Source of the DNA: an uncultured Clostridia bacterium
GTDB taxonomy: Bacteria > Acidobacteriota > Aminicenantia > UBA2199
NCBI GenBank assembly: GCA_964400545.1
Contig: CAYNUG010000001.1
Span: 2,394 to 66,393 of the forward strand
Length of the DNA: 64,000 nt
Direction: 5' to 3'
The translations under genes and the position numbers were made by a program. Shown here piece after piece: positions 18,332 through 35,517 of the stretch. The notes under the pieces were generated by a model. It did not search any database. It saw only the letters and a program-made list of their open reading frames with translations, and was not told the DNA's origin. The first letter of the stretch is position 1, and the number at the start of each line of letters is the position of its first letter.

Positions 18332-19594
18332 CTACCAGCTAACAGACTTGCGGCTTACCGGCATCGTCATGCACCGACATCCGCCACCACCCCTTGACAA
18401 TTCACCGCCATGTATAGTGATAACATATTTTTCGTGATCTTTAATATCAACTTTACCCGAAATAATATCGGCAGCCTTAATTACTTCAAAACCTTTCTGG
18501 TTCATCTCTTCAATAGTATAATTGTTTCTGCCATATCCTATGACTTTCCCCTCTCCAAGAGCAAAAAAGTTTGCCCCGCTATGCCATTGTTCCCTCTCCT
18601 GGACCCAACTATCCTTTCGGCCACCGCAATAGACCGGTTCAAGATCAAGCCCTAAATCACTCAGCACTTCGAGAATATTCTTCTCTTCTCTGATGGAGAC
18701 CACCTTGCCATTATCCAGACTTATCCTAACAGTCTGATACTTGTTCGCACTTAGAACAGCCGGTTCATAGATCATACATTTATCTTTATCAAGCATTGTA
18801 AAGATCATATCAAGGTGAATAAACGATTCCGGACTCATTGGGAGCTCCTGCACGATTATATCCATTTTTCTTTTACGTTCATTCATTTTATCGATGATAT
18901 AGTCAACTCCTTCAGTCGAAGTTCTGGCTCCGATTCCCACGACCAATATATCATTTCTTACGACCAGGATATCGCCTCCTTCTATAGAAAGATTTTCACT
19001 CACTTTCAGGTCTTCAAGAGGACTCATCGTTTTTGTATTAAACATTTGATGGAAATCAAATATCGTCTCCATAATCAAAGATTCCCTTCCCCTGACCTTA
19101 TTCTTCATCCGGCCGATCAGCACCGATTCTCCAATGGAAATTGACGCATCTCTGACATAAAAAAAGTTATGGAGAGGTTTAAGAGAATATTTTTCTCTGC
19201 TTAAAAATTTTGTAAGTGAATCAGATACTTTTTCAGTACCTTCAATAAGAGCTTCAGACAAACGATCCGTATTCATTCCCAACAGTTCATCACGGATGTC
19301 ATAAACATCCTCATTCTCACATACTTTTTCCACAAGGGTCTCTTTGACCTTCTCATTTAACAATACATCTTTAAGGAGATCCCTTATCTGATAAGTTACG
19401 GTAATCTTATTTAGAACATCTCTCATTTGTGAATACTCTTTTGATACTACGGAGAGATTCAATATATCACTATAAAGTGCTCTCTCCACATTTTCGGGGG
19501 TCATATTCTCGACCTCTCTGCCGGGAGTATGCAGGATCACACTTTCCAATTCACCAATCTCAGAGTTTATTTCAACTTTACATTCTTTTTGCAT
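18332..19594 (-). CDS. arcA: arginine deiminase
   Basis: 420 aa with FYVRDASI, HLDMIFTM, and the C-terminal catalytic Cys region GGGGCRCMTMPVSR. Confidence 0.85.
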   Translation of the reverse strand: MQKECKVEINSEIGELESVILHTPGREVENMTPENVERALYSDILNLSVVSKEYSQMRDVLNKITVTYQIRDLLKDVLLNEKVKETLVEKVCENEDVYDIRDELLGMNTDRLSEALIEGTEKVSDSLTKFLSREKYSLKPLHNFFYVRDASISIGESVLIGRMKNKVRGRESLIMETIFDFHQMFNTKTMSPLEDLKVSENLSIEGGDILVVRNDILVVGIGARTSTEGVDYIIDKMNERKRKMDIIVQELPMSPESFIHLDMIFTMLDKDKCMIYEPAVLSANKYQTVRISLDNGKVVSIREEKNILEVLSDLGLDLEPVYCGGRKDSWVQEREQWHSGANFFALGEGKVIGYGRNNYTIEEMNQKGFEVIKAADIISGKVDIKDHEKYVITIHGGELSRGGGGCRCMTMPVSRKSVSW

Positions 19595-19874: not shown

Positions 19875-22121
19875 CTATACTTTAACTGCCTTTTTTCCCA
19901 TAAATGTTTTTTTGAACAGATCCACAAATATCATAATACCGCCCAGGATCATTAACGTATCAGGTAAAATACGGAACCACATCCAACCACGGACGATCTC
20001 GATCGCTTCCCGTGTTCTGGTAAAATAGTAACCCATTTCGGCAGCGATCCTGGTCTGTTCCAAACCGATGATCAATGTTGGAAGCGCAAAAAGCAAGACA
20101 CCGATCGTTAGAGACCAGAACCCGATCTTACTCAATTTGTCATTCCACTCCCATCCGTTTGCCATCGAATTAGCTCGAGAGGTCATATAGAGGAAAGCGA
20201 TCGAGATGTAACCGAACGCTCCCAATAAAGCAACATGGCCATGGGGCATGATCAGATAAGTTCCATGAGAATAATATGAGATCGTAGGAGTATTAATAAC
20301 CATACCGAAGAATCCGGCTCCTATCCAATTCAGGATGGCAGATCCTGCAATCCACATAAAAGGCGTGCTGAACTGATTTTCTTCTCCTGACAATTTTTTC
20401 TTCCTCAAATTTTTCCAGGCTTCAACGATCATCAACGCAAGAGGAAGCGGTTCAAGTGCAGAAAAAATTCCGCCGATAGCTATCCAGTATTGATCCAGTC
20501 CCTGCCAGAAGTAATGATGACCAACTCCCAGTGTCCCCGACATCATAATAAGGAACAACTCGAAAAACATCGTCCTTTCAGCGGTCTTTCGGGAAATCAA
20601 TCCGAGAGTGACTGTGAAATATGCGATCACACCGGCAGCAAACAGTTCAAAAGTCAACTCGACCCATAGATGTATAACCCACCATCGATAGTAATCATCG
20701 ACTGTAAAGTTAGGCATGATCTTATGAATAGGCATCATACCTGCAATGTATAATGTTGCTATTGCAAAAGCTGACCATATAATTGTCCCGACAAGCGGAT
20801 TGTTCGTCGAAGCTTTTTTGATCAAAGTTATGATCAGAATAAACCAGAAAACCAATCCCAGGACCAGTCCTATATCCCATACTCGTCCCAGATTCAGTAA
20901 CTCCCGACCTTCATTCCCAAACCAGAACCATACCTTACGCAAATAACCATTTGCCCCCAGATACAATCCTATGGTAGAACCAACAGCAACCACGACCAGT
21001 GCTGACCAGAGTACATCAATCAGCCATGGCATTTTATGATCTTTATTTGCAATCAACGGCGCAATTAACAAACCCCCTACCAGCCAGCCAACAGCTACCC
21101 ACAGAATGGCCAACTGAGTATGAATGGAACGAAGTACATTAAATGGCAACAAACTTTGTGAAAAAATAAAATTCTGTGTAGGATTTGCATACAGGTGGGC
21201 TAAGTATGCACCTATGATCAATTGAACCACAAATAATAAACTTACTACAGGAATATATTTCAAAAGTTTTTTCTGTGATTTGAATAAAGTAGTTATTTTT
21301 AAAGCAGGCTCAAGTTTCTCGTTCTCTTCTTTTTTGAAAAGGTATTCATAAGACAAAAAGATAACGATTATAGTAAGGGTCCACAATAACAGGAACTCCC
21401 ATAATGAAACTATATGACTGTTGTATGAAGTATCCTGATCAACGAGCGGTTCCTTTGGCCAGTTGTTTGACCAGGTTCTCTCTTCACCGATCTTCCCCTC
21501 GGTTCCGGGCCGAAGTGATGATGCCACAAGCTGGGACCAATCAATAAAAGTTGCAATTTTTTTTGCTTCTGACTCTAATATCACTCCGCCAACGAATGCT
21601 CTTTCCTTATCCCCGTTTACCAGCATATCCGTTAAATGTTCGACATTTTTCTTATATGCTAATGCTGAAGCATCAGTATAGGTAACTCCGGACTCCATTA
21701 ACTTAGTCTGCTTCCGGAAATCTTCCTTGACGCGAACTTTCACTCCGCCTCTTTCAATATCCGTCAGATCTTTTGCTGATTTACCATACATCTGCCCGGC
21801 ATAATAATCATACAGAAACTCTGCTCTATGGTGAAAGAACTCCGTAGTAAAATCAGGACCCATATAAGCGCCCATCCCCAACAGAGTCCCCCAATCCATC
21901 AAATCGAATTCCTGAAAATACCCTTTCCCCTCAACCACATCATCGTAAGTATACAAAACTTCACCAGATTCGGATTGAACTACTTTAGGAATAGGTGGAA
22001 CTTCCTTCTGCAAATTCGCAGTAAAATAGATTAGGATAGAAACCATAAAAATGGCAATCATCCAGAAACCGACATAGAGACTTTTTCGGCTCATAAATTT
22101 GTCTAACAATGATTCTTTCAT
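19875..22121 (-). CDS. quinol-dependent nitric oxide reductase (qNOR; NorB fused to a heme-less NorC-like extension)
   Basis: 748 aa. The N-terminal extension of about 250 aa has one TM helix and no Cys, hence no CxxCH. It is followed by a 12-TM heme-copper-oxidase subunit I-like core with His ligands (HGHVALLG, VGHHYFWQG). Confidence 0.85.
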   Translation of the reverse strand: MKESLLDKFMSRKSLYVGFWMIAIFMVSILIYFTANLQKEVPPIPKVVQSESGEVLYTYDDVVEGKGYFQEFDLMDWGTLLGMGAYMGPDFTTEFFHHRAEFLYDYYAGQMYGKSAKDLTDIERGGVKVRVKEDFRKQTKLMESGVTYTDASALAYKKNVEHLTDMLVNGDKERAFVGGVILESEAKKIATFIDWSQLVASSLRPGTEGKIGEERTWSNNWPKEPLVDQDTSYNSHIVSLWEFLLLWTLTIIVIFLSYEYLFKKEENEKLEPALKITTLFKSQKKLLKYIPVVSLLFVVQLIIGAYLAHLYANPTQNFIFSQSLLPFNVLRSIHTQLAILWVAVGWLVGGLLIAPLIANKDHKMPWLIDVLWSALVVVAVGSTIGLYLGANGYLRKVWFWFGNEGRELLNLGRVWDIGLVLGLVFWFILIITLIKKASTNNPLVGTIIWSAFAIATLYIAGMMPIHKIMPNFTVDDYYRWWVIHLWVELTFELFAAGVIAYFTVTLGLISRKTAERTMFFELFLIMMSGTLGVGHHYFWQGLDQYWIAIGGIFSALEPLPLALMIVEAWKNLRKKKLSGEENQFSTPFMWIAGSAILNWIGAGFFGMVINTPTISYYSHGTYLIMPHGHVALLGAFGYISIAFLYMTSRANSMANGWEWNDKLSKIGFWSLTIGVLLFALPTLIIGLEQTRIAAEMGYYFTRTREAIEIVRGWMWFRILPDTLMILGGIMIFVDLFKKTFMGKKAVKV

Positions 22122-22502: not shown

Positions 22503-23192
22503 TCAAGAACCTGAAAGCAATTTTATTTTCTTAGAAGCTTCCCCGCTCAACGGACTGAACATTTTCTCCAACATCCTCAATTCCTTTAGTGCATCGCCTT
22601 TCCTGTTCATCCTCAGAAAACAAATACTCCGGTAGTAAATCGCCTCATCATAATAGGATGGGTCCATACTATTCGTGATCATGTTGAAAAAAGAAAGTGC
22701 ATTTTCATTTTCTCCATTTATCAGACCAAGTATCCCGCTGAAAAACCATATTTGCGGATTCCCATTCTTAATGGTTTTAATGATTTTATATGAACTGTCA
22801 TAATCACCTTTCGAGTAATATTCCATCAATTGATCGAATACAGACGGCACATTGTACCCCCTGTTTTCGCCTTTGATATAGAGCGGTGGGGTAAAACAGG
22901 AAATTTCGATCAATTTTTTATTTCTGCTGCCAAGATCTACAAAAAACAATGAAGAAAACACAATAAGGATCAATGCGGCAACAACAAGTAAAGGTTTGAA
23001 AACAAAAAAATGCTTACGTTTCTCTCCGGAAACAATATTTACCTTTTTTCTATACAGGATCTCATTAACTTTCAGTGAAGCAAAACAATCATTACATATG
23101 AAATAATGCTCTTCAAAGTTTTCTTTTTTTTCATCCGGAATCGTCCCGTCCAAATAGCTGCCGATAAGAGATTCAAATTCACTACAGTTCAT
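22503..23192 (-). CDS. anti-sigma factor (zf-HC2, single TM, extracytoplasmic TPR-like domain)
   Basis: 229 aa with H-x3-C-x2-C in EEHYFICNDC, TM FKPLLVVAALILIVFSSLFFV, and a helical-repeat C-terminus. Lies 10 nt downstream of the ECF sigma gene. Confidence 0.65.
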   Translation of the reverse strand: MNCSEFESLIGSYLDGTIPDEKKENFEEHYFICNDCFASLKVNEILYRKKVNIVSGEKRKHFFVFKPLLVVAALILIVFSSLFFVDLGSRNKKLIEISCFTPPLYIKGENRGYNVPSVFDQLMEYYSKGDYDSSYKIIKTIKNGNPQIWFFSGILGLINGENENALSFFNMITNSMDPSYYDEAIYYRSICFLRMNRKGDALKELRMLEKMFSPLSGEASKKIKLLSGS

Positions 23193-23202
23193 GTTTCCTC
23201 TG

Positions 23203-23763
23203 TCATTTAAATAGATCTTCAGCTCTCATTATCTCACTTTTTATTTTTTTTAACGCCCTCTCTTTTCGGACACTTACATAATGTTTTGTCCTTTGCAATA
23301 ATACGGATATTTCACCCACAGAGTTCTCTTTCATAAAAAATTCCTTTAAGATCGTCCTGTCGATTTCTTTAAGTTTTTCAATGTGAGTATTTATAAGTTT
23401 TATCAACCTGTCATTGTTCAGGATATCCTCACCTGAAAAATCAACAAAAGGATAATGAGTGTTTTCTGCTTTCTTTCTTATATTTTCAGTTTTCTTTTTC
23501 TTGTAAAAAAAATTGTAAACGACTCTTTTTGCAATACCGAAAATAAAAGGTGCTATAAACACATCTTCAGAGATCTTTCCTTTTTTCACAGCGTCAAAAA
23601 AAGAAACAAAAACCTCCTGAACAAGATCATCGTAGTTATCCACACCTTTTATTCTTGATCTGAAATAAGTGAAGAGTCTGGAATTATATTTGCCGACAAT
23701 TATCGTATCAACGGAAGAGTTATCTGTTTTTAATAATTGTATTAAACTTTTGTCTCCCTTCAT
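23203..23763 (-). CDS. ECF-type RNA polymerase sigma factor
   Basis: 186 aa with region 2 (DDLVQEVFVSFF) and region 4 HTH (SVGEISVLLQRTKHYVSVRKERALKKI). Confidence 0.8.
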   Translation of the reverse strand: MKGDKSLIQLLKTDNSSVDTIIVGKYNSRLFTYFRSRIKGVDNYDDLVQEVFVSFFDAVKKGKISEDVFIAPFIFGIAKRVVYNFFYKKKKTENIRKKAENTHYPFVDFSGEDILNNDRLIKLINTHIEKLKEIDRTILKEFFMKENSVGEISVLLQRTKHYVSVRKERALKKIKSEIMRAEDLFK

Positions 23764-23790
23764 TACCCTTTCCCTGATAAATCCAAAATA

Positions 23791-23819
23791 ATTCTAATGG
23801 ATTATCATTCATTAATCAA
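23791..23819 (-). promoter_or_regulatory. sigma-70-like promoter candidate for the ECF sigma operon
   Basis: On the - strand: TTGATT (23819-23814), 17-nt spacer, TAGAAT (23796-23791). Sits about 28 nt upstream of the ATG at 23763. Confidence 0.3.
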
Positions 23820-26604
23820 GAAATTGAAACTTTTTTCTATTTTCAATAAGATTAAATTTATGAGACAGAAATTTCTGTTGTTATTTATACTATCATTTAC
23901 ACTGAATATTTGCCCCGTCCCCCGGGAAAAAAGCAACATTCCGGTAGAAACACTTAACACTCTCATGGAGAACGTTCACAATTTCAATAGTGCTGAAGAT
24001 AATATCTGGACACTAAAGCAGGATCTGAGAAGTATCAATCGCTATGGAAAGAGTATCAACAACCATAAGAAAGTCTTTCTTTTTTTCAATCAACTGCTCA
24101 GAGAAAAAAAATTTAAAGATATTCATTACTTCATTTATCTTCAACTTGCAAAACGGACTAAAAATAAAAAGAGATCCTATTTAAGAAAAGCTCTTCAACT
24201 CTCTCTTAATGATGAATCCAGACTTGAAGTTCTTGTGAAGCTCTATGAGTATCATAAGTGGAAAGGTGATACTGAAAGTGAAATATTTTATCTGAAGAAG
24301 CAGGTCAATATCAGGAAAAAATCCGGAAACAGAAAGGGATTGCAAAAAACATATACTGCAATCGGAGATTACTACCTGTTGGAGAATAATCTCATAAGAT
24401 CCCTTCAAAATTTCTTTGAAGCACTGAAATATTCTGAACGTACAATAAATGCAAAAAATGGATATATCTATGAGAAGATAGCAATAGTTTTCTCTTCACT
24501 GGGAAGAAATAAACTGGCGCTCAAATATTTGAAAAAAGCCCTCGATTGTTCAACAAAATTCAGAACTGATACTCTCCGCAGATCAGTTCTTAATGATTTC
24601 GGAAAAATTTACTTTTCCATAGGAGATTATAAGAATGCAGATTATTACAACAATCTCAGTCTGAAAATCTCAGAGAAAAAAAATTTGCCTGTATTGAAAT
24701 TAAATTCGGATTATTTAAAAGCCCGAATATATTTTAAGACCGGAAAGGAAATAGAAGGGCTAAGCTTACTTAAAACTGCAGTTGACAATGGTATCCGTTC
24801 AGAATCATATATTGATCTCCTCCCTGTCCTTTATGAGTTCATAAGAAAAGCCATTCTGTATGGAAACCTTGAGATCGCCTCCTCGTATCTGCAGTGGCTG
24901 GACGAAATCTACGCACCGTATCATAGAGGTTATTTCCTTTACTATTTTCTGAAAGCTGTCATTAGCGAAAAAAAAGGAGATCTCGGAAATGCCGGAAAAT
25001 TTTTTGACAGAACCGTAAACAATCTAGAAAAATTCTTTTCAGGATTGAAAAACCTTAAGTATTACCCTTTCAAGAAAGAAATAACATATATATATTCGAT
25101 TATTGCCAGATTTAATTTCAGAATGTTCGACCTTACAAATGATGTCAAATTTCTTAAGAAAGCAATTTATGCCGGAGAAGTTAAGAATCCTTATATGTTC
25201 CGGCTTTCACATAAAAAGACGAAACAGTCCTTAAATATCTCAATTGAAAGAAATAGGATCAAAAATGAGATCAGCTCAACAAAAAACAGACTTACGTCAG
25301 TTGAAAATAATAGTAATGAAAAAACATTTTTCAAAAACAGACTTTCAAAGTTAAGGACACAACTTGTTGAAATGGACGATCTGCTGATAGAAGTACCGAA
25401 GAATTATAGTAGATACCGGATTTCCGATCTGGATATATCCGGGATCCAGAAAACATTGGCGAAAGATACTGTAATAATAAGATTTTTGATTCTTGAAAAA
25501 AACGCATACGCATTTGTTATAGATAACAAATCAATAGGATATAAAAAGCTGGAAAGAAGCAGTAAATATATCCGGGAACTGACCAATACCCTTATAAACC
25601 CGATAGAAGATTATGCTGAAGGTTCTGTGGATTTCCTTAGAATTAAATACGATCTGAAAAAATCTCAGGAATTGTATAACATCATTCTGTTTGAAATTCT
25701 CGAATTTCAAAAAGATAAAAAAAAGTTGATCATCATTCCCGATAATGTACTTTTCAAGATCCCGTTCGAAGCTCTCGCAACCGACATCGGGAATATCACA
25801 AGATCATCAGGGATCATTTTTTCAGAATACGAAAATGCACGATTCCTTATTGACAACTATTCTGTAGAATATGTTCTCTCTCTGTTTCATTTACATAAAA
25901 AGAAAAAATCGGGGAAGAACATTTATAACCTTGCTGCATTCGGTTTCCCGGAAATAATATCAAAGAACAAAGATTCCCGGGATTATTTCGGTTTCCCCGA
26001 TTCAGGGCTACTAAGCCTTCCGTCATCCGGTATAGAAATAAACAAGATAAAAAAGATTTGGGGGAAAAACAGAAATCGGTACTTTACGGGAACAGGCTTC
26101 ACAAAAGAAAATTTTATACGAATTGCACCGGAATCAAGAATAGTCCATATTGCAACCCACTTTGTAAGCAACGAAGAATACCCTTGGTACTCATTCTTTT
26201 TGTTTTCTCCCGGCAAGAAAGGCGACGCCATTTATTACGTTTCGGAAATGTCAAAATTAAAACTGAATTGCGAACTGATGTTCCTGAGCACCTGTAAAAG
26301 TTCTGAGAACCACCTTATGGGCGAACAATTGATCAACGGTGTGACAGCTGCGCTCTTCAATTCCGGAGTAAGATCAATTATTGCAAGTTCATGGCCGGTA
26401 AATGAATTCAGCACCGGATTGATCACTCCGTTCTATACGGAATTAATGAAGGATCCTGAGGTTAGTAATGATGTTTCAAGATTAATGAGAAAAATAAAAA
26501 TATCTTTTAAGAAAAAAAGGATCCGGCTAAAAAGCGGACAAATTGTATCTTTCAGCCATCCCCTTATATGGGCAAATTTCAATTTATACAGATTCAATTT
26601 ATAA
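23797..26604 (+). CDS. exported TPR-repeat protein with C-terminal CHAT (caspase-like) domain
   Basis: 935 aa; alternative start M22 at 23860 gives the signal-like MRQKFLLLFILSFTLNICPV. About 600 aa of TPR-like helical repeats plus coiled coil precede the CHAT domain from about 25726 (LIIIPDNVLFKIPFEALA). Putative dyad: His in VHIATHF (26146-26160) and Cys in LMFLSTCKSS (26293-26295). Confidence 0.8.
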   Translation: MDYHSLIKKLKLFSIFNKIKFMRQKFLLLFILSFTLNICPVPREKSNIPVETLNTLMENVHNFNSAEDNIWTLKQDLRSINRYGKSINNHKKVFLFFNQLLREKKFKDIHYFIYLQLAKRTKNKKRSYLRKALQLSLNDESRLEVLVKLYEYHKWKGDTESEIFYLKKQVNIRKKSGNRKGLQKTYTAIGDYYLLENNLIRSLQNFFEALKYSERTINAKNGYIYEKIAIVFSSLGRNKLALKYLKKALDCSTKFRTDTLRRSVLNDFGKIYFSIGDYKNADYYNNLSLKISEKKNLPVLKLNSDYLKARIYFKTGKEIEGLSLLKTAVDNGIRSESYIDLLPVLYEFIRKAILYGNLEIASSYLQWLDEIYAPYHRGYFLYYFLKAVISEKKGDLGNAGKFFDRTVNNLEKFFSGLKNLKYYPFKKEITYIYSIIARFNFRMFDLTNDVKFLKKAIYAGEVKNPYMFRLSHKKTKQSLNISIERNRIKNEISSTKNRLTSVENNSNEKTFFKNRLSKLRTQLVEMDDLLIEVPKNYSRYRISDLDISGIQKTLAKDTVIIRFLILEKNAYAFVIDNKSIGYKKLERSSKYIRELTNTLINPIEDYAEGSVDFLRIKYDLKKSQELYNIILFEILEFQKDKKKLIIIPDNVLFKIPFEALATDIGNITRSSGIIFSEYENARFLIDNYSVEYVLSLFHLHKKKKSGKNIYNLAAFGFPEIISKNKDSRDYFGFPDSGLLSLPSSGIEINKIKKIWGKNRNRYFTGTGFTKENFIRIAPESRIVHIATHFVSNEEYPWYSFFLFSPGKKGDAIYYVSEMSKLKLNCELMFLSTCKSSENHLMGEQLINGVTAALFNSGVRSIIASSWPVNEFSTGLITPFYTELMKDPEVSNDVSRLMRKIKISFKKKRIRLKSGQIVSFSHPLIWANFNLYRFNL
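23824..23852 (+). promoter_or_regulatory. sigma-70-like promoter candidate for the CHAT gene
   Basis: TTGAAA (23824-23829), 17-nt spacer, TAAGAT (23847-23852). The predicted TSS falls at or next to the internal ATG 23860 (MRQKF...), which would imply a near-leaderless mRNA. Confidence 0.25.
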
Positions 26605-26668
26605 AAAGGAGAAATAAAATGAGATATAGTAAATGTATTTATATATATAGAATAAGGAGAATCATACT

Positions 26669-29272
26669 ATGAAGAAAACTCTGTTTTATGTGATACTAAT
26701 TTCATTATTTTGTACTCCATTTGTAGTGGGAGAAAACATAACATCCAACCCCGGACAAATCTTCCCGGGAACTGTGGTGAATTTCGGAATTCATGCTGGC
26801 AATCCTTCAAATATCTCACCTGCCTATAAATGGGACTTCGGTGACAACACGCCTCCCCAAACCAGTCAAAACCAATCTCCGACACATACTTATAAAGAAC
26901 CTGGAAATTATAATGTAACTTGCACAATAACTCATCCCGGAGGACCGCCGGCGATCCTTTCCATGCGCTTAACCGTAACAGAAAGAAGGACGGTAGAACC
27001 CAAGGGCAATACCTTCAAGGCTGGGACCCCGGTATTGTTGGAATCAAAGTATTTCGTTGATAATTCTCTGAATTGGGATTTCGGAGATAATACGATCACT
27101 AATGGCCAGAAAAATATGGAGCATACTTATCGGAACCCGGGAAATTATACAGTTAAAGTAAAAGATTATAGCGGTCATTCTTCTTCGGTTATTACCTGCA
27201 CCGTCAATATCGCTCCGGATAACAGATCTATAACCATGAATCCACAGAACCCTTCACTTTATGATGAGGTTACTTTTAATGCTGTCAACTTCCCCTCCGG
27301 ATCAATAGAGTGGGATTTTGACAGAGGAAATAAAAAGAACGGAGGACCGGTCGAAAAACACATATTCACTAATATGGGGACATTCAAAATAAAAGCGAGA
27401 GAATCCGGTTCAAGCACCCCTTTCGTAACTTTAAATATCTCCGTTAACCGGGATAAAAGAAAAATATCTACACAACCTAATTCAGCTTTTGTCGGTCAGG
27501 ATGTATCCATTAAACTTCAGAACAGTTCGGCAAATACTGTAAAATGGAAGATAGGAAAAGAAAACCCAATAAATAATTCCCCTCTGAATATCATGCATAA
27601 ATTCAAAAGCCCGGGAAGAATAGAGATAATCGCAGAGATACAGGGACAATCTCCTGTAAGAGGAACAATATCAATAAACGAAAATCGAAAGATCGAATCG
27701 GAAAGTAAATATCTTTTTGAAAAGGGCGAACTGAAGTTTACCGCCAGAAGATTTAACACTCCCTCCTCTCTCAAGTGGGATTTTGGAGATGGGACCGTAC
27801 GTACCGGAAATGACCGGATGATCTTCAGATACAAGAGACCGGGAAATTTTACAATAAAAGTATATGATTTCAACGGTTCCGCTGTCGTTCCGGTTAAGCT
27901 GAGAGTAAAAGTGATCAGGGATAACAGAGAAATAGTTTCCGTAAATAAAAAATTCTTTGAAAACACTGAGATCGAGTTCAATGCAAGAGGTTTTATCGAT
28001 AACAGGGTCAAGTGGAATTTCGGCGATGGAATAGAAATGAAAGGTTCAAAGCGTATTAAGCATAAATACAACAGAGCCGGAACATACAGAATATATGCTA
28101 TTGATATGGACGGTAAAGGAGATAAAAAAATAGATCTGAATGTTACTGTTCTTAAGGACACCAGGAATTTTCAGTTGGGGGATAAGATCATTGCAGGTGT
28201 ACCCGTTTCAATGCAGATAACAAATTCACAAGGCGGGAACTTCGAATGGAAATTGCCGGGCGGAAAAATTTCGTCAGGCCAGAGACCCGGAATGTTTGTG
28301 TTTTCCAAACCGGGAATGCAGACAATTGTTATCAAAGACAGATCAGGAATATATCCTCCGGTTACAAAAACAATAAATGTACAACAAGATAACAGATCTC
28401 TCGAGATCAAATCAGATTCACTGCTTATAGGAGACCCTTTAAAAATCACTCTTAAAAATTTCATCGGCAAATCAGTAAAGTATGATTTCGGAGATGGAAC
28501 TTCACCGGAAGTATCGGCAGGAACGGTTACACATAAATACATCTCCGCAGGTTCATTTGTAATCACAGTTATGGATTTTAAAGGTGCAGGGAAAAAGCAC
28601 TTTAAAAAAACCGTGACGATTAATGAGCAGATGGATGATTTTCAAATAATTAAAATGGAATTTACTTTCAATAACGGTAAATATTTCAGATTGATCCCGA
28701 GAAAAAGTTTTTCGCCCGGATATGTTCTTAAGCTCAACTTTAGAGGGAGAGGGATATTAACCGGCAACTGGATTTTTGACGGGCATATACTCGGAATTTT
28801 CACAAAACTTTCATCAGGAAGGAACCAGATCATATTCAAAGGAAATGAATTACCCAAACTGCCTGTATTAGATTCTGGAATTCATTCTTTAAGTTTTGAA
28901 TTTACAAATTTCAGATTCAAAGGACGGATCCCTATCCTGAGATATTTTGTAACTAATGGCAGATCTATCAAAACAATTTCCCCATCTCCCGGCGCCAAAT
29001 TCAGTATAGGAGAAAGCATTCGGTTGAAATGGAAGAACTTGGAAAAAGGAGACAGATTTCAAATAGCTGTTTCGAAGATCCCATTTCAATTCCTCAGCAA
29101 AAAAAATATCAAATGGAAAGATACAGGTGAAAATAATTATTTCGATCTTGACACGGATTCTTATACTAAAGGAGCATGGATCTACTGGCAAGTTAGAATA
29201 CTGGACGCAACGAACACGGTTTCGACAATGTCGGAAATTTCTTATTTCAGATTATTGAAAAACCGAATTTAG
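26669..29272 (+). CDS. secreted protein with 8 PKD-like repeats and a C-terminal uncharacterised module
   Basis: 867 aa with signal MKKTLFYVILISLFCTPFVVG. The PKD signature recurs eight times, e.g. WDFGDNT...HTYKEPGNYNVT and WDFGDGT...YKRPGNFTIKV. The C-terminal ~215 aa is paralogous to 32079-32733. Confidence 0.8.
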   Translation: MKKTLFYVILISLFCTPFVVGENITSNPGQIFPGTVVNFGIHAGNPSNISPAYKWDFGDNTPPQTSQNQSPTHTYKEPGNYNVTCTITHPGGPPAILSMRLTVTERRTVEPKGNTFKAGTPVLLESKYFVDNSLNWDFGDNTITNGQKNMEHTYRNPGNYTVKVKDYSGHSSSVITCTVNIAPDNRSITMNPQNPSLYDEVTFNAVNFPSGSIEWDFDRGNKKNGGPVEKHIFTNMGTFKIKARESGSSTPFVTLNISVNRDKRKISTQPNSAFVGQDVSIKLQNSSANTVKWKIGKENPINNSPLNIMHKFKSPGRIEIIAEIQGQSPVRGTISINENRKIESESKYLFEKGELKFTARRFNTPSSLKWDFGDGTVRTGNDRMIFRYKRPGNFTIKVYDFNGSAVVPVKLRVKVIRDNREIVSVNKKFFENTEIEFNARGFIDNRVKWNFGDGIEMKGSKRIKHKYNRAGTYRIYAIDMDGKGDKKIDLNVTVLKDTRNFQLGDKIIAGVPVSMQITNSQGGNFEWKLPGGKISSGQRPGMFVFSKPGMQTIVIKDRSGIYPPVTKTINVQQDNRSLEIKSDSLLIGDPLKITLKNFIGKSVKYDFGDGTSPEVSAGTVTHKYISAGSFVITVMDFKGAGKKHFKKTVTINEQMDDFQIIKMEFTFNNGKYFRLIPRKSFSPGYVLKLNFRGRGILTGNWIFDGHILGIFTKLSSGRNQIIFKGNELPKLPVLDSGIHSLSFEFTNFRFKGRIPILRYFVTNGRSIKTISPSPGAKFSIGESIRLKWKNLEKGDRFQIAVSKIPFQFLSKKNIKWKDTGENNYFDLDTDSYTKGAWIYWQVRILDATNTVSTMSEISYFRLLKNRI
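26756..28625 (+). repeat. eight tandem PKD-like coding units (protein-level repeat)
   Basis: Equivalent Trp codons lie at 26831, 27074, 27311, 27545, 27776, 28013 and 28247, with Tyr at 28481, giving a period of 231-243 nt, all in frame. The units are diverged at nucleotide level. Confidence 0.75.
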
Positions 29273-29355
29273 TTGCCTCTTACAGTCTTGAATTTTTTAT
29301 TATTTTCATATATTGTTTTTAACAACATCATGAGTATCCAAGAAGGAGTGAAAAA

Positions 29356-31263
29356 ATGCAAACAAAATTTCATTATGTCTTAATCCTGCTTTTATTATTG
29401 AATTTCGGTCTTTGGAGCAAATCTTTCGGATTCTCCAACTATCTTCCGGTTATTGAAAAGGGAGATAGTGAAATTACTATCAAAGTTACTACTCTTAGCC
29501 GTGGAGATGATTTTTATCTCTATTATAAAACGGAAGGACTTAGTCACTATCAGGTAAGAAAGATGCTAGTCAATTCGAAAGGAGAGATCTATTATAAACT
29601 TCCGGTTGAGAATCTATACGGAAAAAATCTGGAGTATTTCATCTTTGAAAAAGACAAGAGTAAAATAAGACCCCTTTCTCCTGTTTTCACGATTACTAAT
29701 TTTACAAAGAAAGAATCTCCAAGAATATATTTCATGGATGCAGGATCTGGATCATCCACTCCGAAAAAGAGAAATCCTTTTATTAAGATCAGTCCTTCGT
29801 ACTCTGCATCATTAAGGTTATATGACAACATGAATAATCAGGAAGAACCATTCGCAAATGATGGGAGATTGAAATTATACAGGAATATTTATGATGGTGA
29901 ATATCAATTTGATTTCGAATCCGAATTAACATATCTGGATCAGATCGGACCTGACGAGAGTCATATCAACCTTTCAAGCATGATAATAAGATTCAAGAAG
30001 GGAAATCATAAATTTGAAGCCGGTGATGTTTCAATGTGTTATACAAATTTCACTGCTCCCATGTTGAATAGAAGGGGATTGAACTATGAAATGACAGGGA
30101 AAAAAGTAAACTTGAATCTCTTTTCATTAAATTCCCAACAGAAGACCGGTTTTGAAGGTTTTGGAATTCCTATCCCCGATGCAAATTTATTCGGAGCATC
30201 AACCGGGTATAAGATCGGGCAAAATTTTAAGGTAACAACTCTTTTCATCACGGGAAAAGACAGAACTGACAGTAAAACGGTATATTCCAATGAGGATCCT
30301 TATAGAGAAGGAGATATTATTTCGTTATGGGGGGAATTAAAACTTTTAAAAAGAAGCCTTACATTAAAAGGAGAGATCGCTCAAAGTAATTTCGGGAAGG
30401 GCGAATCCAGTAACGATATAACCAAAGAGAAAGATACTGCCTGGAAAGCAGGTTTTAACTATTACAAAGGTAAAGTATCTGCAAGCGGAACATTTAAGAG
30501 GATTGGTACCGACTATCATTCTATTGCAAATCTGATGCTTCTTAATGACCGCGAAGGTCTTAACACAACTATAGGTCTGACATTCTCTAAACTCACATGG
30601 AATGTCACATATATGGATGAAAAAAACTATCTTAACAGCACTGAATGGAACAAAGAAAGGACAAAAGAGATCAAAACAGATGTAAATTGGACATTGGGAA
30701 ATCACTTTAGTATTGGAGGAAATGTTGGAAGAAATAATCTCAATTATGATGAGTCAACAGGGCTTCAAAACTCAGGTAACCCGATGAATACAACAACATA
30801 TCAGGGAAATATCAGATACTTTGCAGGCAGAAACAGTATCTCATTCGGAATTGGTCAAATAGAATCAGAAAATTTCAGATCTAACTTCAGTACAAATCTG
30901 TCAATGATGCTGAATCTTGGGAAGTTCCTGTCCCTTACGCCTTCAGCATCATATACCAGCACCGAGAATTTGACCGATAACTCAACCTCAAAGACACTCA
31001 ACGTAACATTAAGCTCCGAACTGACATTCATTCCGGAAATTTTCACTATAAGCAACTATTCATCGTACTACAAGAGTGATAATGTTAATTCACAAATGGA
31101 AATATTCTCCACGGATCTAAGTCTTAATTTCTTTATGGCCAAGATTTTTAAGAACAAGATCCGCCCCTCACTATCATTAAAAAGCAATTATAAAAGTGAA
31201 AACAATTCGGGAGTAATAGTTGACACACTCACTCTGTATTTAAAAGCAAACATATCATTCTAG
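29356..31263 (+). CDS. outer-membrane beta-barrel protein candidate with N-terminal soluble domain
   Basis: 635 aa with signal MQTKFHYVLILLLLLNFGLWS. The first ~110 aa are beta-rich. A long run of alternating amphipathic strands rich in Y/N/S/T/G follows, ending in a C-terminal aromatic (LKANISF). No family recognised. Confidence 0.55.
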   Translation: MQTKFHYVLILLLLLNFGLWSKSFGFSNYLPVIEKGDSEITIKVTTLSRGDDFYLYYKTEGLSHYQVRKMLVNSKGEIYYKLPVENLYGKNLEYFIFEKDKSKIRPLSPVFTITNFTKKESPRIYFMDAGSGSSTPKKRNPFIKISPSYSASLRLYDNMNNQEEPFANDGRLKLYRNIYDGEYQFDFESELTYLDQIGPDESHINLSSMIIRFKKGNHKFEAGDVSMCYTNFTAPMLNRRGLNYEMTGKKVNLNLFSLNSQQKTGFEGFGIPIPDANLFGASTGYKIGQNFKVTTLFITGKDRTDSKTVYSNEDPYREGDIISLWGELKLLKRSLTLKGEIAQSNFGKGESSNDITKEKDTAWKAGFNYYKGKVSASGTFKRIGTDYHSIANLMLLNDREGLNTTIGLTFSKLTWNVTYMDEKNYLNSTEWNKERTKEIKTDVNWTLGNHFSIGGNVGRNNLNYDESTGLQNSGNPMNTTTYQGNIRYFAGRNSISFGIGQIESENFRSNFSTNLSMMLNLGKFLSLTPSASYTSTENLTDNSTSKTLNVTLSSELTFIPEIFTISNYSSYYKSDNVNSQMEIFSTDLSLNFFMAKIFKNKIRPSLSLKSNYKSENNSGVIVDTLTLYLKANISF

Positions 31264-31275
31264 GAGAACAGAAAA

Positions 31276-33060
31276 ATGAAAAAAACAATATTGATACTAA
31301 CAATTTCATTTATTTTTGCATTGTCATCTTATTCAGCGATCATTGTAAATAATGACGGTCCCTACCATATAGGAGTCAGAATAGGATTTAATAAGGATTG
31401 TCATGACTTCGGCAGGGGTGAATCCAATTGGGAATTCGGAGACGATACTGTCAAAGGGTTCGCAGATGATCTCGACCACGGTTGGCAATATCATTCTTAC
31501 TCTATTCCCGGGACATATAAAGTGACATATACTCATGGTTCAACTATATCAACCCCAATGTGTGGAGTTACATCTGCAGCCTATTCTGAGACTTATATGA
31601 TAACCATTCTACCCGGCAGATTACTCACGGCTTCGCCCTCTAATCCGGGAGTCGACCAACTCGTTTATTTTAGTGCCTTGAACTTTAACGGATCCTCTCT
31701 TTTATGGAACTTCGGAGAAAGTTCATCAATATGGGGAAGCCCTTATCAAACTCACCGATATTCACGGGAAGGAGTTTATACTGTTTCAGTAATGGAAAAG
31801 GATATCAGACATACTCCCGTTACTACTGTTGTTACAGTTTTGCCTGATAACAGGTTCATCCAGGTTTCTAATTCTGAAATAAGGACCGGACAACCGATAA
31901 TTATCTATGCCAGGAATTTTTACGGGGAAACTATTCTCTGGAATTTTGGTGACGGGACAATAATTCTGGGCGGACAAACTGTTTCTCATATTTATAAAAG
32001 ACCCGGCAACTATACTATCACAGCTATTGATGACGAAGGAACAAGTAAAAAGAAATTTGAGACAAAAATACATGCTTTCGGAATATCTGACACAGTTCTT
32101 CTTGAAATAGCCGAACTCAGCTTTGCCAACGGGAAATATTTCATGGTAGTTCCAAGAAAATCGGACATACTGAAACCAATTCTGAGATTGAAAATGAGAG
32201 GAACCGGGGTTGTCACAGGATACTGGTTATATGATGGAGCAGTTTTTGGATTTATTAATGAATTATCAACTCAGGGTGCTGTTAAAGAGATAACAATGGA
32301 TAAAACTCATCCGTTACCAACCATCGATCCCGGAGTTCATACAATTACATTCCATCTCACAAATCCGGAAACCGAAGCAGTTTTCCCTATTCTGCGATAC
32401 TATGTATTGCCATATGAAAGAGGATTCACACTGCTCTCTCCTCCAGATGGTTTCGTTGCAAAAGACAAAGAGATCCCGGAATTTTCATGGGAACAGATAA
32501 AAGGAGGAGCGGCGAAATATCAGATAGCTTTCGAGAAATCTCTTTATAATCTTATGGATAACAAATCTTCAGTGAAATGGACAGATGTTAAGGGAAGTCT
32601 GAATTTCACTCCAGACAAAATTATATGGAACGGACTAAAAAGGAACAGATGGACATACTGGAAAGTTAGAGCTTTTGACAGTTTTAATAATGTTGTAGGA
32701 GAAAGTGGAATTAATGAGATAAAGGTCGTTATAGCCAAAGCGGAGATCACACTGAACAAGATCACAGATCTTGAAGGAAAAAAGATCCATTTGGGCAAGG
32801 ATGGCATTTTCTCCGGGTCAGATATGATTCTGATAAACGGCAGCGTGGAATACAAAGGAGATTCAAAGTTCCTTATTCTTCAGGTCATGGTAAATGATAA
32901 AATGATCGATCAGCTCCTTTTTAGAGATGTTAAGAAAAACGAGATAAGAACATTTGAAACATCCGTGCCAGGAAAAAAGAAAGGTAAGATAGTTTTCCGT
33001 GTTCTAAAATCCTCATCTCCCTCTGTTGTCGTCGGGATAAAAGGGATATTACTGAAGTAA
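31276..33060 (+). CDS. secreted protein with 3 PKD-like repeats, the shared C-terminal module and an extra C-terminal beta domain
   Basis: 594 aa with signal MKKTILILTISFIFALSSYSA and repeats WEFGDDT, WNFGESS and WNFGDGT...YKRPGNYTITA. The module at 32079-32733 aligns with 28631-29269. Starts 12 nt after the barrel gene. Confidence 0.75.
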   Translation: MKKTILILTISFIFALSSYSAIIVNNDGPYHIGVRIGFNKDCHDFGRGESNWEFGDDTVKGFADDLDHGWQYHSYSIPGTYKVTYTHGSTISTPMCGVTSAAYSETYMITILPGRLLTASPSNPGVDQLVYFSALNFNGSSLLWNFGESSSIWGSPYQTHRYSREGVYTVSVMEKDIRHTPVTTVVTVLPDNRFIQVSNSEIRTGQPIIIYARNFYGETILWNFGDGTIILGGQTVSHIYKRPGNYTITAIDDEGTSKKKFETKIHAFGISDTVLLEIAELSFANGKYFMVVPRKSDILKPILRLKMRGTGVVTGYWLYDGAVFGFINELSTQGAVKEITMDKTHPLPTIDPGVHTITFHLTNPETEAVFPILRYYVLPYERGFTLLSPPDGFVAKDKEIPEFSWEQIKGGAAKYQIAFEKSLYNLMDNKSSVKWTDVKGSLNFTPDKIIWNGLKRNRWTYWKVRAFDSFNNVVGESGINEIKVVIAKAEITLNKITDLEGKKIHLGKDGIFSGSDMILINGSVEYKGDSKFLILQVMVNDKMIDQLLFRDVKKNEIRTFETSVPGKKKGKIVFRVLKSSSPSVVVGIKGILLK

Positions 33061-33126: not shown

Positions 33127-33783
33127 TTATTTATTATTTTCTTTAATAAAAAATGTCAGTGAAGTGCTTTTTCCTTTGTAAAAAGTGGAAAGAAGATAAT
33201 ATCCGCTGTATTTAAGTTTCAGAAAATAATGATTAGTTTTCCCTGAGTAAAGATAAACAGGTTTTTTACCTTCCGGTATAACAATGAGTTTTGATCTCAC
33301 GGACTTCCCATCTGACAGAATTCTGATCCGTAGATCGTCTGACATTTTTTTATTGAACAGATCTTCGGGAATGATCTCCAATCCTTGTCCAGAAAACAAT
33401 TTTTCGTCATCAGCTTCTCTCTTTCCCGGAAAGACAACAGCTCTTCCATAAAAGAAAGGTGTCTTTGATAGTTTTTTCTTCAAACTGAAAACGATCAAAT
33501 ACTCCGAATCCGGGACCGCATCAACCACTCCTGTCCATGTTTTACCTTTCCTCAAAATTTCAACCGGTTTCTTCACTCCATGATCAACGAAATAAACACT
33601 ACCGATCATTTCTCGTTTCAGCAATAATTCATTTTCAGGGAATTTATGTCCACAGCATATCCGGAACATGATACCTTTTTCGGCTCCGGATATTCCTGTC
33701 TCGGGAATTATCCATTTATAATGTGAAAATACAGGTAATGAAAAAAATAATACCATAATTACTATTTGAATTTTTTTATTCAT
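33127..33783 (-). CDS. DUF4198-like periplasmic protein (family linked to Ni/Co uptake)
   Basis: 218 aa. Signal peptide ends ...LPVFS followed by HYKWIIP (mature N-terminal His), plus CCGHKFPENE and GLEIIPE, the pattern recalled for DUF4198. Strong GAGGAG RBS. Confidence 0.5.
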   Translation of the reverse strand: MNKKIQIVIMVLFFSLPVFSHYKWIIPETGISGAEKGIMFRICCGHKFPENELLLKREMIGSVYFVDHGVKKPVEILRKGKTWTGVVDAVPDSEYLIVFSLKKKLSKTPFFYGRAVVFPGKREADDEKLFSGQGLEIIPEDLFNKKMSDDLRIRILSDGKSVRSKLIVIPEGKKPVYLYSGKTNHYFLKLKYSGYYLLSTFYKGKSTSLTFFIKENNK

Positions 33784-33806
33784 CTTTTCTTCTCCTCAAT
33801 ACTTTG

Positions 33807-33833
33807 GTGTTACGATATTTGCAAACGTAACAC
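33807..33833. promoter_or_regulatory. perfect 8-bp inverted repeat (operator candidate) in a divergent intergenic region
   Basis: GTGTTACG (33807-33814), 11-nt spacer ATATTTGCAAA, CGTAACAC (33826-33833). Lies in the 106-bp gap between 33783 (-) and 33890 (+). Confidence 0.35.
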
Positions 33834-33889
33834 TTGGCACGCAAAAAGTCAATCATTTTTTTATTATTCACTTTGTAGTAAAATTAAGT

Positions 33890-35008
33890 ATGGGACTAAA
33901 AAAAATTATATTTATTAGCATATCCGTGTTTTTTCTTTCACAAATACTTCCGGCCTCAGGTCCTCCTGGAGGAAGTAAAACCGAATTTGATCTTAAAATT
34001 GATGTCAGGTCATATTTTTCTAACGACCAGAGGATCCAGTGGAGCGGAGCGGAAGCAACATTTGGAACAGAAGCGATCATCCGTGGAAATGCAAAAAAAA
34101 TGATCAGGAACACCGAGTTCTTTGCAGGTGGGGAGATCAGGCTGAATCAGTCATTTGACAATAATTTCCTTGTTGATGAGTATAGAGAAAAATATATTCA
34201 GAACTTCAAGACAGACCGCTTTCAGATAGCAGGGATGTTTGTCGGGCTGAGAGTAAAGAATTTCGAATTATCATTGGGGAAGAGGAGATCGATCTTCGGA
34301 AATGACCAATTGGTACATCTTACAAACGGAGAAATTTTCCAGCCTTTCATCAGAACTGAATCCGTGCTATGGTGGGAGACAGGGCTTTTCCTGAAATACA
34401 GAAAGGGAATAATTCGGCTCGATCTGTCGGTTGTGAACGGAGGACCCGATAAAGATACCAACTCCAGTAAAGCCGCAGTAGCAAGAGCCGGGATCGAATT
34501 GAAGAATTTTGCTATCGGTGTATCGGCAAAAGTTCAGGACGGAATAGGTTCAGAACAGCAAAAACAATATAAGAACCATATAGGATTTGATATTTCATTC
34601 AGATCAGGAAAGTTCAGACTTTCCGCAGAAGGGATCTATGATGAATATGGATTCAGGAAAGAATTTAACAGCGATGATATATTCTGGGAAAGGAGTCTGT
34701 ACTACAGAGATCAGTTTTATAAATCGGAGACTCCTATCACAGGAATTGGCGGATATATTGATCTCAGCTATCACAACAACAAGATCCTTGTGAATATTAA
34801 CTACGGGGAATTCCATCCTGAGAAGATCAATAATCCTTATCATGATCCCCCGATAAGGAGAGGAATATTGAAGTTCATATATAATTTTTCACACGGATTT
34901 GGTATTTTTCTTAGTACTTTAATAGAGAATGACAGGTTAAGAGAGCCTGTTTTTTCAGGGGCTGAAGGCTACGCATATATAGTTGGCATGACATTTTCTA
35001 TAAATTGA
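33890..35008 (+). CDS. porin-like outer-membrane protein candidate
   Basis: 372 aa with signal MGLKKIIFISISVFFLSQILPASG and an alternating beta-strand pattern throughout. No specific family recognised. Confidence 0.4.
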   Translation: MGLKKIIFISISVFFLSQILPASGPPGGSKTEFDLKIDVRSYFSNDQRIQWSGAEATFGTEAIIRGNAKKMIRNTEFFAGGEIRLNQSFDNNFLVDEYREKYIQNFKTDRFQIAGMFVGLRVKNFELSLGKRRSIFGNDQLVHLTNGEIFQPFIRTESVLWWETGLFLKYRKGIIRLDLSVVNGGPDKDTNSSKAAVARAGIELKNFAIGVSAKVQDGIGSEQQKQYKNHIGFDISFRSGKFRLSAEGIYDEYGFRKEFNSDDIFWERSLYYRDQFYKSETPITGIGGYIDLSYHNNKILVNINYGEFHPEKINNPYHDPPIRRGILKFIYNFSHGFGIFLSTLIENDRLREPVFSGAEGYAYIVGMTFSIN

Positions 35009-35061
35009 TTTTTTTTGAGATATCAGATATCCGATCTTTATTTATAAGCAAGGAGAAAAAA

Positions 35062-35517
35062 ATGAAAAAAATAATTATACTTATTTCAATCACAATGCTG
35101 ATAGCAACAGGAATATTGCTTAGCAATGAGAATAAATCCTTCCAGCCTGTTTCATCTTCAAAGATAATGGAAATATCAGGAAAGATCCAGGCAATCATGA
35201 CAAACATCCCGGTCAGGAGATCAGCAATGGAGGGCCCTTCGGTCGCATTTATAAAGATCAAAGTTAAGAACCTGACTACCGGACAGGAGAGTTCTGTTCA
35301 GATCGCACCGGGCTATTTTCTCAAGATTAAAGGGGTAGTTCTTCAGAAAAATGACCAAATCAAGATCAAAGCATTCAGAAAGGATAATTCCGCCGAAATA
35401 CAATCCCTGGAGATCGAAACGAGAGGCAGGGTCCTTGTCATCAGAGATCGATTCGGCAATGGCTTGTGGGAAAAACCTCAACTCAGACCTAAAAGATCCG
35501 GATTTGGCAAAAAATAA
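35062..35517 (+). CDS. small periplasmic protein (possibly MamS/MamX-N-domain-like)
   Basis: 151 aa from ATG 35062 (AAGGAG RBS at 35050-35055); the track start 35005 is a TTG. Signal MKKIIILISITMLIATGILL. VQIAPGYFLKIKG...GRVLVIRDRFGNGLW resembles a recalled small periplasmic family; this is a low-confidence family call. Confidence 0.45.
   Translation: MKKIIILISITMLIATGILLSNENKSFQPVSSSKIMEISGKIQAIMTNIPVRRSAMEGPSVAFIKIKVKNLTTGQESSVQIAPGYFLKIKGVVLQKNDQIKIKAFRKDNSAEIQSLEIETRGRVLVIRDRFGNGLWEKPQLRPKRSGFGKK

Follow-up and report, generated by a model that had tools for sequence, protein, structure and literature searches.

We have found that a cluster of six genes from an uncultured Aminicenantes bacterium resembles a split form of the DdvA envelope signaling system of Myxococcus. 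The cluster lies in a 64,000-nucleotide (nt) stretch of metagenome contig CAYNUG010000001.1 (positions 2,394 to 66,393; hereafter the window) and encodes a sigma factor of the extracytoplasmic function (ECF) type with its anti-sigma factor and, divergently transcribed, a protein of tetratricopeptide repeats (TPR) with a C-terminal CHAT domain, an outer-membrane (OM) β-barrel and two exported proteins with eight and three PKD domains (PKD8 and PKD3; Table 1). In the reading we favor, to which we would give slightly less than an even chance, the CHAT protein feeds the anti-sigma factor and the PKD and barrel genes form the output regulon. The assignment of the CHAT protein as the input of the sigma switch is favored by the precedent of a fusion, by a sigma/anti-sigma/CHAT triad that recurs in other lineages, and by the constitutive type of promoter before the CHAT gene as against the motif, P1, found on the PKD and barrel genes. 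The fused DdvA system is already known; what is new here is the split sigma/anti-sigma/CHAT form and the envelope regulon defined by P1.

The Aminicenantes relatives of the window are represented by metagenome assemblies only, and were scanned twice. One scan used one genome per species with the barrel as anchor and gave 35 loci, against which all the window proteins were compared; the other, made independently on metagenome contigs with the anti-sigma factor as anchor, gave 25. Loci collected in this analysis are labeled Lnnn.

A TPR-CHAT protein related to DdvA and predicted to be exported

The CHAT domain is recognized by Pfam (PF12770) with an E-value of 1e-33 (117.5 bits against a cut-off of 24) over model positions 3-287 of 289, and TPR_12 is also matched. 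The public annotation of the contig uses the 914-amino-acid (aa) form of the gene. A His/Cys pair, His788 and Cys833 in the numbering of the 935-aa form (codons 26158-26160 and 26293-26295), is invariant in 14 orthologs with identities down to 26%, where it lies in the motifs H-[LIM]-A-T-H and S-[AST]-C, and also throughout a broad alignment of 21 CHAT sequences. In all orthologs a hydrophobic stretch comes after basic residues at the N-terminus, and the outgroup CHAT proteins also have signal-like N-termini; in the window protein, as in PKD8, the barrel and PKD3, the N-terminal segment is the only hydrophobic one. The sequence thus points to an intact caspase-type pair and predicted protease activity, in a protein predicted to be exported or membrane-anchored through its signal-like N-terminus. 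A preliminary description of this DNA had proposed both features. Its His and Cys do fall at catalytic positions, with the Cys codon as it gave it, and the N-terminus conserved in all orthologs argues against a cytoplasmic protein.

When solved structures were searched, a profile of the full-length orthologs returned TPR matches only and a profile of their CHAT domains alone returned none. A broadened CHAT profile that includes the window protein found 8rot_B as its best match (E = 2.4e-10), followed by Csx29 chains (E about 1e-6) and, weakly, separase. The length of 8rot_B and the position of its aligned His, residue 862, led us to identify it as DdvA, and the His/Cys columns of the profile align with H862/C907, the catalytic pair of DdvA (PMC11506125). 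The DdvA/DdvS system of Myxococcus has a zinc-type anti-sigma factor fused to a periplasmic TPR-CHAT region, for which CHAT-mediated self-cleavage has been proposed, not demonstrated, as site-1 proteolysis; validation of this first cut was said to require finding the activating signal (PMC11506125). Fusions of this kind have been reported only in Myxococcota and one Comamonas (PMC11506125).

DdvA/DdvS is therefore a counterpart of the window system, for which the preliminary description knew of none. Both have an ECF sigma factor beside a single-pass anti-sigma factor of the zinc type (H/C-x3-C-x2-C), an extracytoplasmic TPR-CHAT region (its location being predicted in the window) with an aligned His/Cys pair, and a proposed logic in which a CHAT-dependent first cut is followed by intramembrane proteolysis. 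They differ in that TPR-CHAT in the window is encoded separately and starts with a signal-like N-terminus of its own, the window anti-sigma factor carrying a short TPR tail only, and in that DdvA lacks three CHAT helices, whereas the Pfam match to the window protein covers nearly the whole model. The phylum differs too. Since the anti-sigma factor and TPR-CHAT are two genes on opposite strands, the window locus is not a member of the DdvA type, although it may work like one.

The likely regulon also differs, with PKD/barrel envelope genes in the window in place of the CBASS/CRISPR genes of DdvA. Another reading is that the cluster is an anti-phage sensor like DdvA. Such a sensor would use the surface PKD proteins as receptors or decoys and the CHAT protein to sense attack and turn on a defense regulon. 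DdvA/DdvS does have a CBASS-CRISPR island under its control and gives protection from a phage (PMC11506125), and CHAT proteases recur in defense systems. Around the window cluster, however, there are envelope and housekeeping genes and no adjacent CRISPR, CBASS or nuclease genes, the PADLOC models matched no defense system among the cluster proteins and gave just a weak TPR match, and the locus sits in conserved chromosomal synteny rather than in a variable island. We regard a defense role as very improbable.

Two other known systems share parts of this design. Craspase, in which Cas7-11 acts with the TPR-CHAT protein Csx29, cleaves Csx30 and frees an ECF-type sigma factor. It likewise ties a TPR-CHAT protease to sigma-factor release, with a weaker CHAT profile match than DdvA; Csx29, however, is cytoplasmic and RNA-guided, unlike the window protein with its export-signal-like N-terminus, and neither Pfam nor PADLOC detected cas genes in the cluster, which sets it apart from type III-E loci. 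Classical regulated intramembrane proteolysis is exemplified by RseA/DegS/RseP and RsiW/PrsW. Here the likeness lies in a single-pass anti-sigma factor whose periplasmic domain blocks site-2 cleavage until a site-1 cut has been made, and the difference in the candidate site-1 enzyme, which in the window is a clan-CD cysteine protease and not a serine or metallo protease. Full-text literature searches combining the CHAT domain with ECF and anti-sigma returned the DdvA and CRISPR craspase papers only, and TPR-CHAT with periplasm only the DdvA structure paper; the main text of the ECF reclassification paper does not mention CHAT.

The ECF sigma factor and its zinc-type anti-sigma factor

The sigma factor has only regions sigma-2 and sigma-4 and is followed after 10 nt by the gene for its anti-sigma factor, an arrangement typical of group IV (ECF) sigma factors. 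It is matched by TIGR02937 (50.9 bits, cut-off 42.9) and Sigma70_r2 (27.4, cut-off 24), while Sigma70_r4 falls just under its cut-off (20.8 against 24.1), and it has no close relative among solved structures. Its orthologs are 42-78% identical and lie next to the anti-sigma gene wherever a locus shows the two.

The anti-sigma factor is matched by zf-HC2 (31.2 bits, cut-off 22.2) and contains within its N-terminal anti-sigma domain (ASD) the motif EEHYFICNDC, that is H29-x3-C33-x2-C36, as in class I zinc-binding anti-sigma factors. The three predicted zinc ligands are invariant in 11 aligned orthologs. The sole internal hydrophobic segment (aa 61-89) is predicted to be a transmembrane (TM) helix. 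It is followed by a juxtamembrane motif, F-x-P-P-x-[YF]-x-x-x-E-x-R (aa 100-111), and by a putatively periplasmic tail (aa ~110-227) of three TPR-like units that matches TPR structures (PP5 TPR, E = 0.0016). The H-x3-C-x2-C motif, the TM helix, the juxtamembrane motif and a tail end of M-[DN]-P-S-Y-[YF]-D-E-A are kept in 34 anti-sigma sequences. The juxtamembrane motif is an obvious candidate for a cleavage or docking site, its E-x-R part (E109 and R111) being the candidate place of a cut.

In most relatives a gene for a small exported protein of ~130 aa lies directly upstream of the ECF gene (L047:9018-9422, L009, L012, L030, L043, L044, L050-L053 and L057-L059). It is absent in the clade of the window, which keeps the CHAT gene, and present in the CHAT-less clade. 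By eye the protein is CARDB-like; Pfam, NCBIfam and PDB sequence searches gave it no assignment.

Sigma/anti-sigma/CHAT triads outside Aminicenantes

We compared the neighborhoods of nine further TPR-CHAT proteins similar to that of the window. In five of these, an ECF sigma factor and an anti-sigma factor with an ASD, a TM helix and a TPR tail are encoded right beside a signal-bearing TPR-CHAT protein, in divergent, convergent or tandem orientation. Two of the five anti-sigma factors are homologous to the window family (hhalign 98% and 95.8%). None of the five neighborhoods contains a PKD8 or barrel gene, which indicates that sigma factor, anti-sigma factor and CHAT protein are the conserved core; the PKD and barrel genes would therefore be an output specific to Aminicenantes. 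Another locus, from a Bacteroidota metagenome-assembled genome (MAG), has three tandem TPR-CHAT paralogs of ~1,090 aa but lacks a sigma factor in the vicinity (L068:1-8297), and so not every member of this CHAT group is sigma-linked.

A conserved and composite cluster

The six reading frames outlined in the preliminary description are all present where it placed them, and the gaps are also right: 33 or 96 nt between the ECF and CHAT genes, according to the CHAT start, then 64, 83 and 12 nt. Synteny searches across the relatives bear out its suggestion of a recurrent conserved module, the layout not being unique to one genome. The 35 barrel-anchored loci show two layouts. About 17 have the six-gene order, anti-sigma and ECF followed divergently by CHAT, PKD8, barrel and PKD3, some of them cut by contig ends, and about 17 have barrel and PKD3 alone with unrelated genes upstream. 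The lowest identities to the window proteins are 26% for CHAT, 30% for the anti-sigma factor, 42% for ECF and 40% for the barrel. In the anti-sigma-anchored loci, CHAT adjoins the sigma pair wherever there is enough upstream sequence, with three exceptions considered below.

Described earlier as self-contained, the module is thus conserved and recurrent, yet it is composite. The barrel-PKD3 pair has a promoter of its own and is present in all relatives sampled, in about half of the genomes without the rest of the cluster; the CHAT-PKD8 pair is missing from a large clade; and three loci have the sigma pair with no CHAT gene. In neighbor-joining trees, the CHAT-less sigma loci form a single derived clade and the barrel-only loci two clades, of which one is large and the other small. 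The full set is carried by the deepest branches, both for ECF and for the barrel; the six-gene arrangement is therefore probably ancestral in the group, and CHAT-PKD8 would have undergone at least one loss or relocation.

Synteny among relatives extends to the flanks of the cluster, which is therefore no mobile island. In L004, L006, L011, L021 and L033 the anti-sigma gene has the arginine-deiminase gene (window 18332-19594) as its immediate neighbor, and the quinol-type nitric-oxide reductase gene qNOR (19875-22121) is an insertion specific to the window lineage. Downstream of PKD3, three further conserved genes (33127-35517) precede the radical-SAM gene. The boundaries proposed before, qNOR and hemW, consequently need revision on both sides.

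Where the sources of barrel homologs are named, they are all Candidatus Aminicenantes or Acidobacteriota MAGs, bar a few obviously mislabeled bins. Several of the cluster-bearing MAGs among L005, L010, L012, L016, L019, L021, L022, L024, L025 and L033 are titled 'uncultured Clostridia bacterium', and others Victivallales or Chrysiogenia; these titles are probably placeholder or wrong taxonomic labels.

A promoter motif shared by the anti-sigma and envelope genes

Several cluster genes are preceded by a common sequence, P1, that we take to be a new promoter motif. A search of 883 kb of loci with the strict pattern TGAGAT-N17-TATnTn gave 54 matches, where Markov shuffles led one to expect 3.9 (maximum 8), and 52 of the 54 sit 44-98 nt upstream of a start codon. 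By downstream gene, strict matches precede the anti-sigma gene (27), PKD8 (8 so labeled and 3 labeled PKD3 by the paralog query), the barrel gene (10, in barrel-only loci and L035), the gene for a 151-aa exported protein (7) and that for an unrelated small exported protein in L009 (1). The anti-sigma site is found in 26 of 28 non-identical loci. Upstream of CHAT, PKD8 and the 151-aa gene, sites were read from displayed sequences. All 22 CHAT-PKD8 intergenic regions displayed, AT-rich and GC-rich alike, contain TGAGAT(A/T) with a TATA-like hexamer ~17 nt further on, and the orthologs of the 151-aa gene in L003-L007 and L011 have the same P1 upstream; no P1 was seen there before CHAT. On crude gene calls the window has just two intergenic TGAGAT sites, the PKD8 site among them. 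Transcripts from the three window copies of P1 would be predicted to start near 23201 (minus strand), 26654-26656 and 35051 (both plus strand). The barrel gene is preceded by a TGAGAT box in barrel-only loci and not in six-gene loci. There is no TGAGAT box upstream of ECF in 28 loci, and P1 is absent from the triads outside Aminicenantes.

The anti-sigma P1 overlaps the coding sequence of the sigma factor, where it leaves a trace in codon usage. Of 25 ECF genes, all 25 use GAG for the Glu within the box, compared with 34% GAG elsewhere in the same genes, and the codon before this Glu always ends in T, indicating that the DNA motif itself is under selection inside the ECF gene. Since the base before TGAGAT is variable, the box is not simply a variant of TTGACA.

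The ECF and CHAT genes have promoters of another kind. In the window, sigma-70-like candidates for the two lie back to back (Table 1). In relatives, a sigma-70-like promoter with variable hexamers precedes ECF or the small exported gene before it, and TTGnnn-N17-TAnAAT is conserved by eye upstream of CHAT in AT-rich and GC-rich relatives alike; a scan of the window alone for sigma-70-like promoters was not above chance. Comparable TTGnnn/TATAnn elements stand before the barrel gene in other six-gene loci.

In every locus P1 is linked to the sigma/anti-sigma pair, and the neighboring ECF sigma factor is thus its likeliest reader. A contrary view would be that the cluster is a chance-conserved neighborhood of independent units and that P1 is the site of another regulator. 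Each unit does have its own promoter, the -10 element of P1 is sigma-70-like, and both barrel-PKD3 and, in three loci, the ECF/anti-sigma pair are found alone. Independent units would nonetheless leave unexplained why P1 joins the anti-sigma gene with PKD8 (or the barrel gene) and with a small exported gene while being almost unseen elsewhere in the 883 kb, and why CHAT genes recur beside ECF/anti-sigma pairs in unrelated lineages and in differing orientations. We consider this view quite unlikely.

Further P1-related observations concern genes at the edge of this set. The strict match in L009 lies 50 nt upstream of the gene for the unrelated exported protein, of 159 aa (17301-17830, minus strand) and far from the cluster, which may be a further P1 regulon member. 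Looser matches lie upstream of the small exported gene that precedes ECF in L012 and L030. In barrel-only loci (L013, L014, L017-L020, L022, L023, L025-L027, L029, L031 and L034) P1 overlaps a second conserved promoter, TTGAAA-N18-TGnTATTTT (sigma-70, extended -10), ~50-75 nt upstream of the barrel gene, an overlap which suggests that the P1 and barrel promoters were joined when PKD8 was deleted.

The PKD and barrel proteins

PKD8 has eight W-x-F-G-D-like units by eye and matches Pfam PKD with E = 1.6e-48 (163 bits, cut-off 23.5); PKD3 scores 58.9 bits against the same cut-off. PKD8 aligns with aa 162-485 of PKD3 at 30% identity (E = 3e-44), the first two C-terminal β-sandwich domains of PKD3 being common to both proteins. 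The C-terminal 333 residues are the best-conserved part of PKD3. An AlphaFold model of this region has three β-sandwich domains (pLDDT 87.8), for which a fold search gave only generic matches to FnIII, Ig and MG arrays, with low TM-scores. Wherever a locus reaches far enough, the barrel gene is followed by PKD3. The PKD3 gene is duplicated in L003 (7662-11311) and L011 (11893-15500), in tandem in both, and in L037 (9089-15468), and in L006 an insert of ~2.2 kb separates it from the barrel gene.

The AlphaFold model of the barrel protein (pLDDT 71) has a signal helix, an N-terminal β-sandwich (aa 32-114) and 26 strands (aa 144-634), and its terminal Phe, F635, is invariant in 20 sequences. The 26-strand model, the C-terminal aromatic residue and the N-terminal hydrophobic segment are together what is expected of an OM β-barrel. 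The family has 336 representatives at E <= 1e-3 among 1.84 billion proteins. Pfam, NCBIfam and PDB sequence searches assigned neither the barrel, the PKD3 C-terminal region nor the neighboring 372-aa and 151-aa proteins, and distant barrel-family members, some with N-terminal Big or PKD domains, gave only sub-threshold matches to Porin_4, SlpA_C or MtrB_PioB. The best Foldseek matches of the barrel are MtrB, PapC and SlpA, with TM-scores of at most 0.44, and reflect barrel size only. MtrB/PioB porins and PapC ushers do share ~26 strands and an adjacent gene for a secreted partner. The TM-score to MtrB, however, is only 0.44, and the window protein has no Pfam match; the idea of an MtrB-like barrel was dropped because no neighboring protein contains a CxxCH haem motif. 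Unlike for PapC, there is no chaperone or plug architecture at the window locus. It is a reasonable guess that the barrel anchors or exports the repeat proteins in a surface or OM assembly.

Proposed mechanism and its alternatives

In the mechanism that we propose, the ECF sigma factor would be held at the inner membrane by the zinc-type, single-pass anti-sigma factor with its short periplasmic TPR domain, while TPR-CHAT would be made constitutively from a sigma-70-like promoter divergent from the sigma operon. On some signal, the CHAT protein would bind the anti-sigma tail or cut it near the membrane, and a site-2 protease would complete the cleavage and free the sigma factor to read P1 promoters. 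P1 upstream of the gene for its own anti-sigma factor would give negative feedback. The other P1 promoters would raise PKD8 and with it barrel-PKD3 (in loci lacking PKD8, barrel-PKD3 directly), and the small exported protein as a further output. The products would be β-sandwich repeat proteins and a large OM barrel, presumably forming a surface or OM assembly.

Several observations weigh against this mechanism, of which cleavage of the anti-sigma factor by CHAT and all the later steps are our inference. The well-covered loci L047, L051 and L062 have the ECF/anti-sigma pair with other genes and no CHAT gene across 9 kb upstream, which makes CHAT dispensable unless its gene lies elsewhere. The anti-sigma factors of the CHAT-less loci hold the same tail and juxtamembrane motif. 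We had considered this motif as the CHAT target and compared its conservation with and without an adjacent CHAT gene; it is equal in the two cases and does not discriminate between them, and the motif cannot be assigned to CHAT on present evidence. The -35 box TGAGAT with a TATA-like -10 is unlike the commonest ECF motifs, AAC...CGT, and P1 might serve a different sigma factor or bind an activator. Finally, the barrel gene has its own sigma-70-like candidate promoter, so that its dependence on P1 in the window rests on read-through from PKD8.

The CHAT and PKD8 genes, moreover, are always present or absent jointly, both in the 35-locus comparison and in the anti-sigma-anchored loci, and their joint loss leaves the anti-sigma factor unchanged, which would suit PKD8 as the partner of CHAT. 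CHAT could then be a maturation or shedding protease for PKD8, perhaps also for PKD3, with the sigma pair purely transcriptional and switched on in some other way, for instance through another site-1 protease or through the small exported protein whose gene precedes ECF in most relatives. The position of PKD8 immediately downstream of CHAT and the persistence of the ECF/anti-sigma and barrel-PKD3 pairs without them agree with this. What speaks against it is that similar CHAT genes stand beside ECF/anti-sigma pairs without PKD8 or a barrel outside Aminicenantes, that the DdvA fusion ties CHAT to an anti-sigma factor, and that PKD8 is on P1 and CHAT on a sigma-70-like promoter, so that the two genes are regulated differently. 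We judge PKD8 as the substrate to be unlikely, though a serious competitor to CHAT as the sigma input; independent units and a defense role are less likely than either.

The two-protein form parts the protease from its candidate substrate and makes the site-1 step proposed for DdvA testable in trans. The triad, present in several lineages, may be a general means of ECF sigma-factor control that has been overlooked. P1 offers the first promoter-defined regulon for Aminicenantes and points to the barrel/PKD pair, which has no curated family and occurs in all sampled relatives, as a central envelope structure. A wider proposition, that exported TPR-CHAT proteins are widespread, unrecognized periplasmic caspase-like site-1 proteases or sensors acting in trans on TPR-tailed anti-sigma factors, with DdvA as a rare fused form, and in Aminicenantes drive a P1 promoter class for an undescribed barrel/PKD surface assembly, seems to us less likely than not.

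Feature coordinates and neighboring genes

Table 1. Genes and candidate promoter elements of the cluster, in window coordinates
Feature	Position	Strand	Description
Anti-sigma factor, 229 aa	22503..23192	-	zinc-type domain, TM, periplasmic TPR-like tail
ECF sigma factor, 186 aa	23203..23763	-	sigma-2 and sigma-4 regions only
TPR-CHAT, 914 aa (935 aa from start 23797)	23860..26604	+	signal-like N-terminus, ~550 aa of TPR-like repeats, C-terminal CHAT
PKD8	26669..29272	+	signal peptide, eight PKD domains, C-terminal two-domain β-sandwich module
OM β-barrel protein, 635 aa	29356..31263	+	
PKD3	31276..33060	+	signal peptide, three PKD domains, three tandem β-sandwich domains (aa 262-594)
Small exported protein, 151 aa	35062..35517	+	N-terminal hydrophobic segment; candidate P1 regulon member
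P1, anti-sigma gene	23208..23236	-	TGAGAT-N17-TATTTA, inside ECF 3' end, 44 nt upstream of anti-sigma start
P1, PKD8	26620..26648	+	TGAGAT, then TATATA or ATATAT after 16-17 nt; CHAT-PKD8 gap, 49 nt before PKD8 start
P1, 151-aa gene	35016..35044	+	TGAGAT-N17-TATTTA, 46 nt upstream of gene
Sigma-70-like candidate promoter, ECF operon	23791..23819	-	TTGATT-17-TAGAAT
Sigma-70-like candidate promoter, CHAT gene	23824..23852	+	TTGAAA-17-TAAGAT, back to back with the ECF one
Weak sigma-70-like candidate, barrel gene	29288..29314	+	TTGAAT-15-TATATT; spacing sub-optimal, low confidence

An Rfam scan of the whole window returned nothing. The 151-aa protein has a precomputed Pfam hit to MamS_MamX on record that was not reproduced, a Pfam rescan giving none. 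Just upstream of its P1-bearing gene, window positions 33890-35008 encode the 372-aa exported protein, which from its sequence looks like a smaller OM barrel; this gene is syntenic in the clade of the window, with identities of 53-74%.

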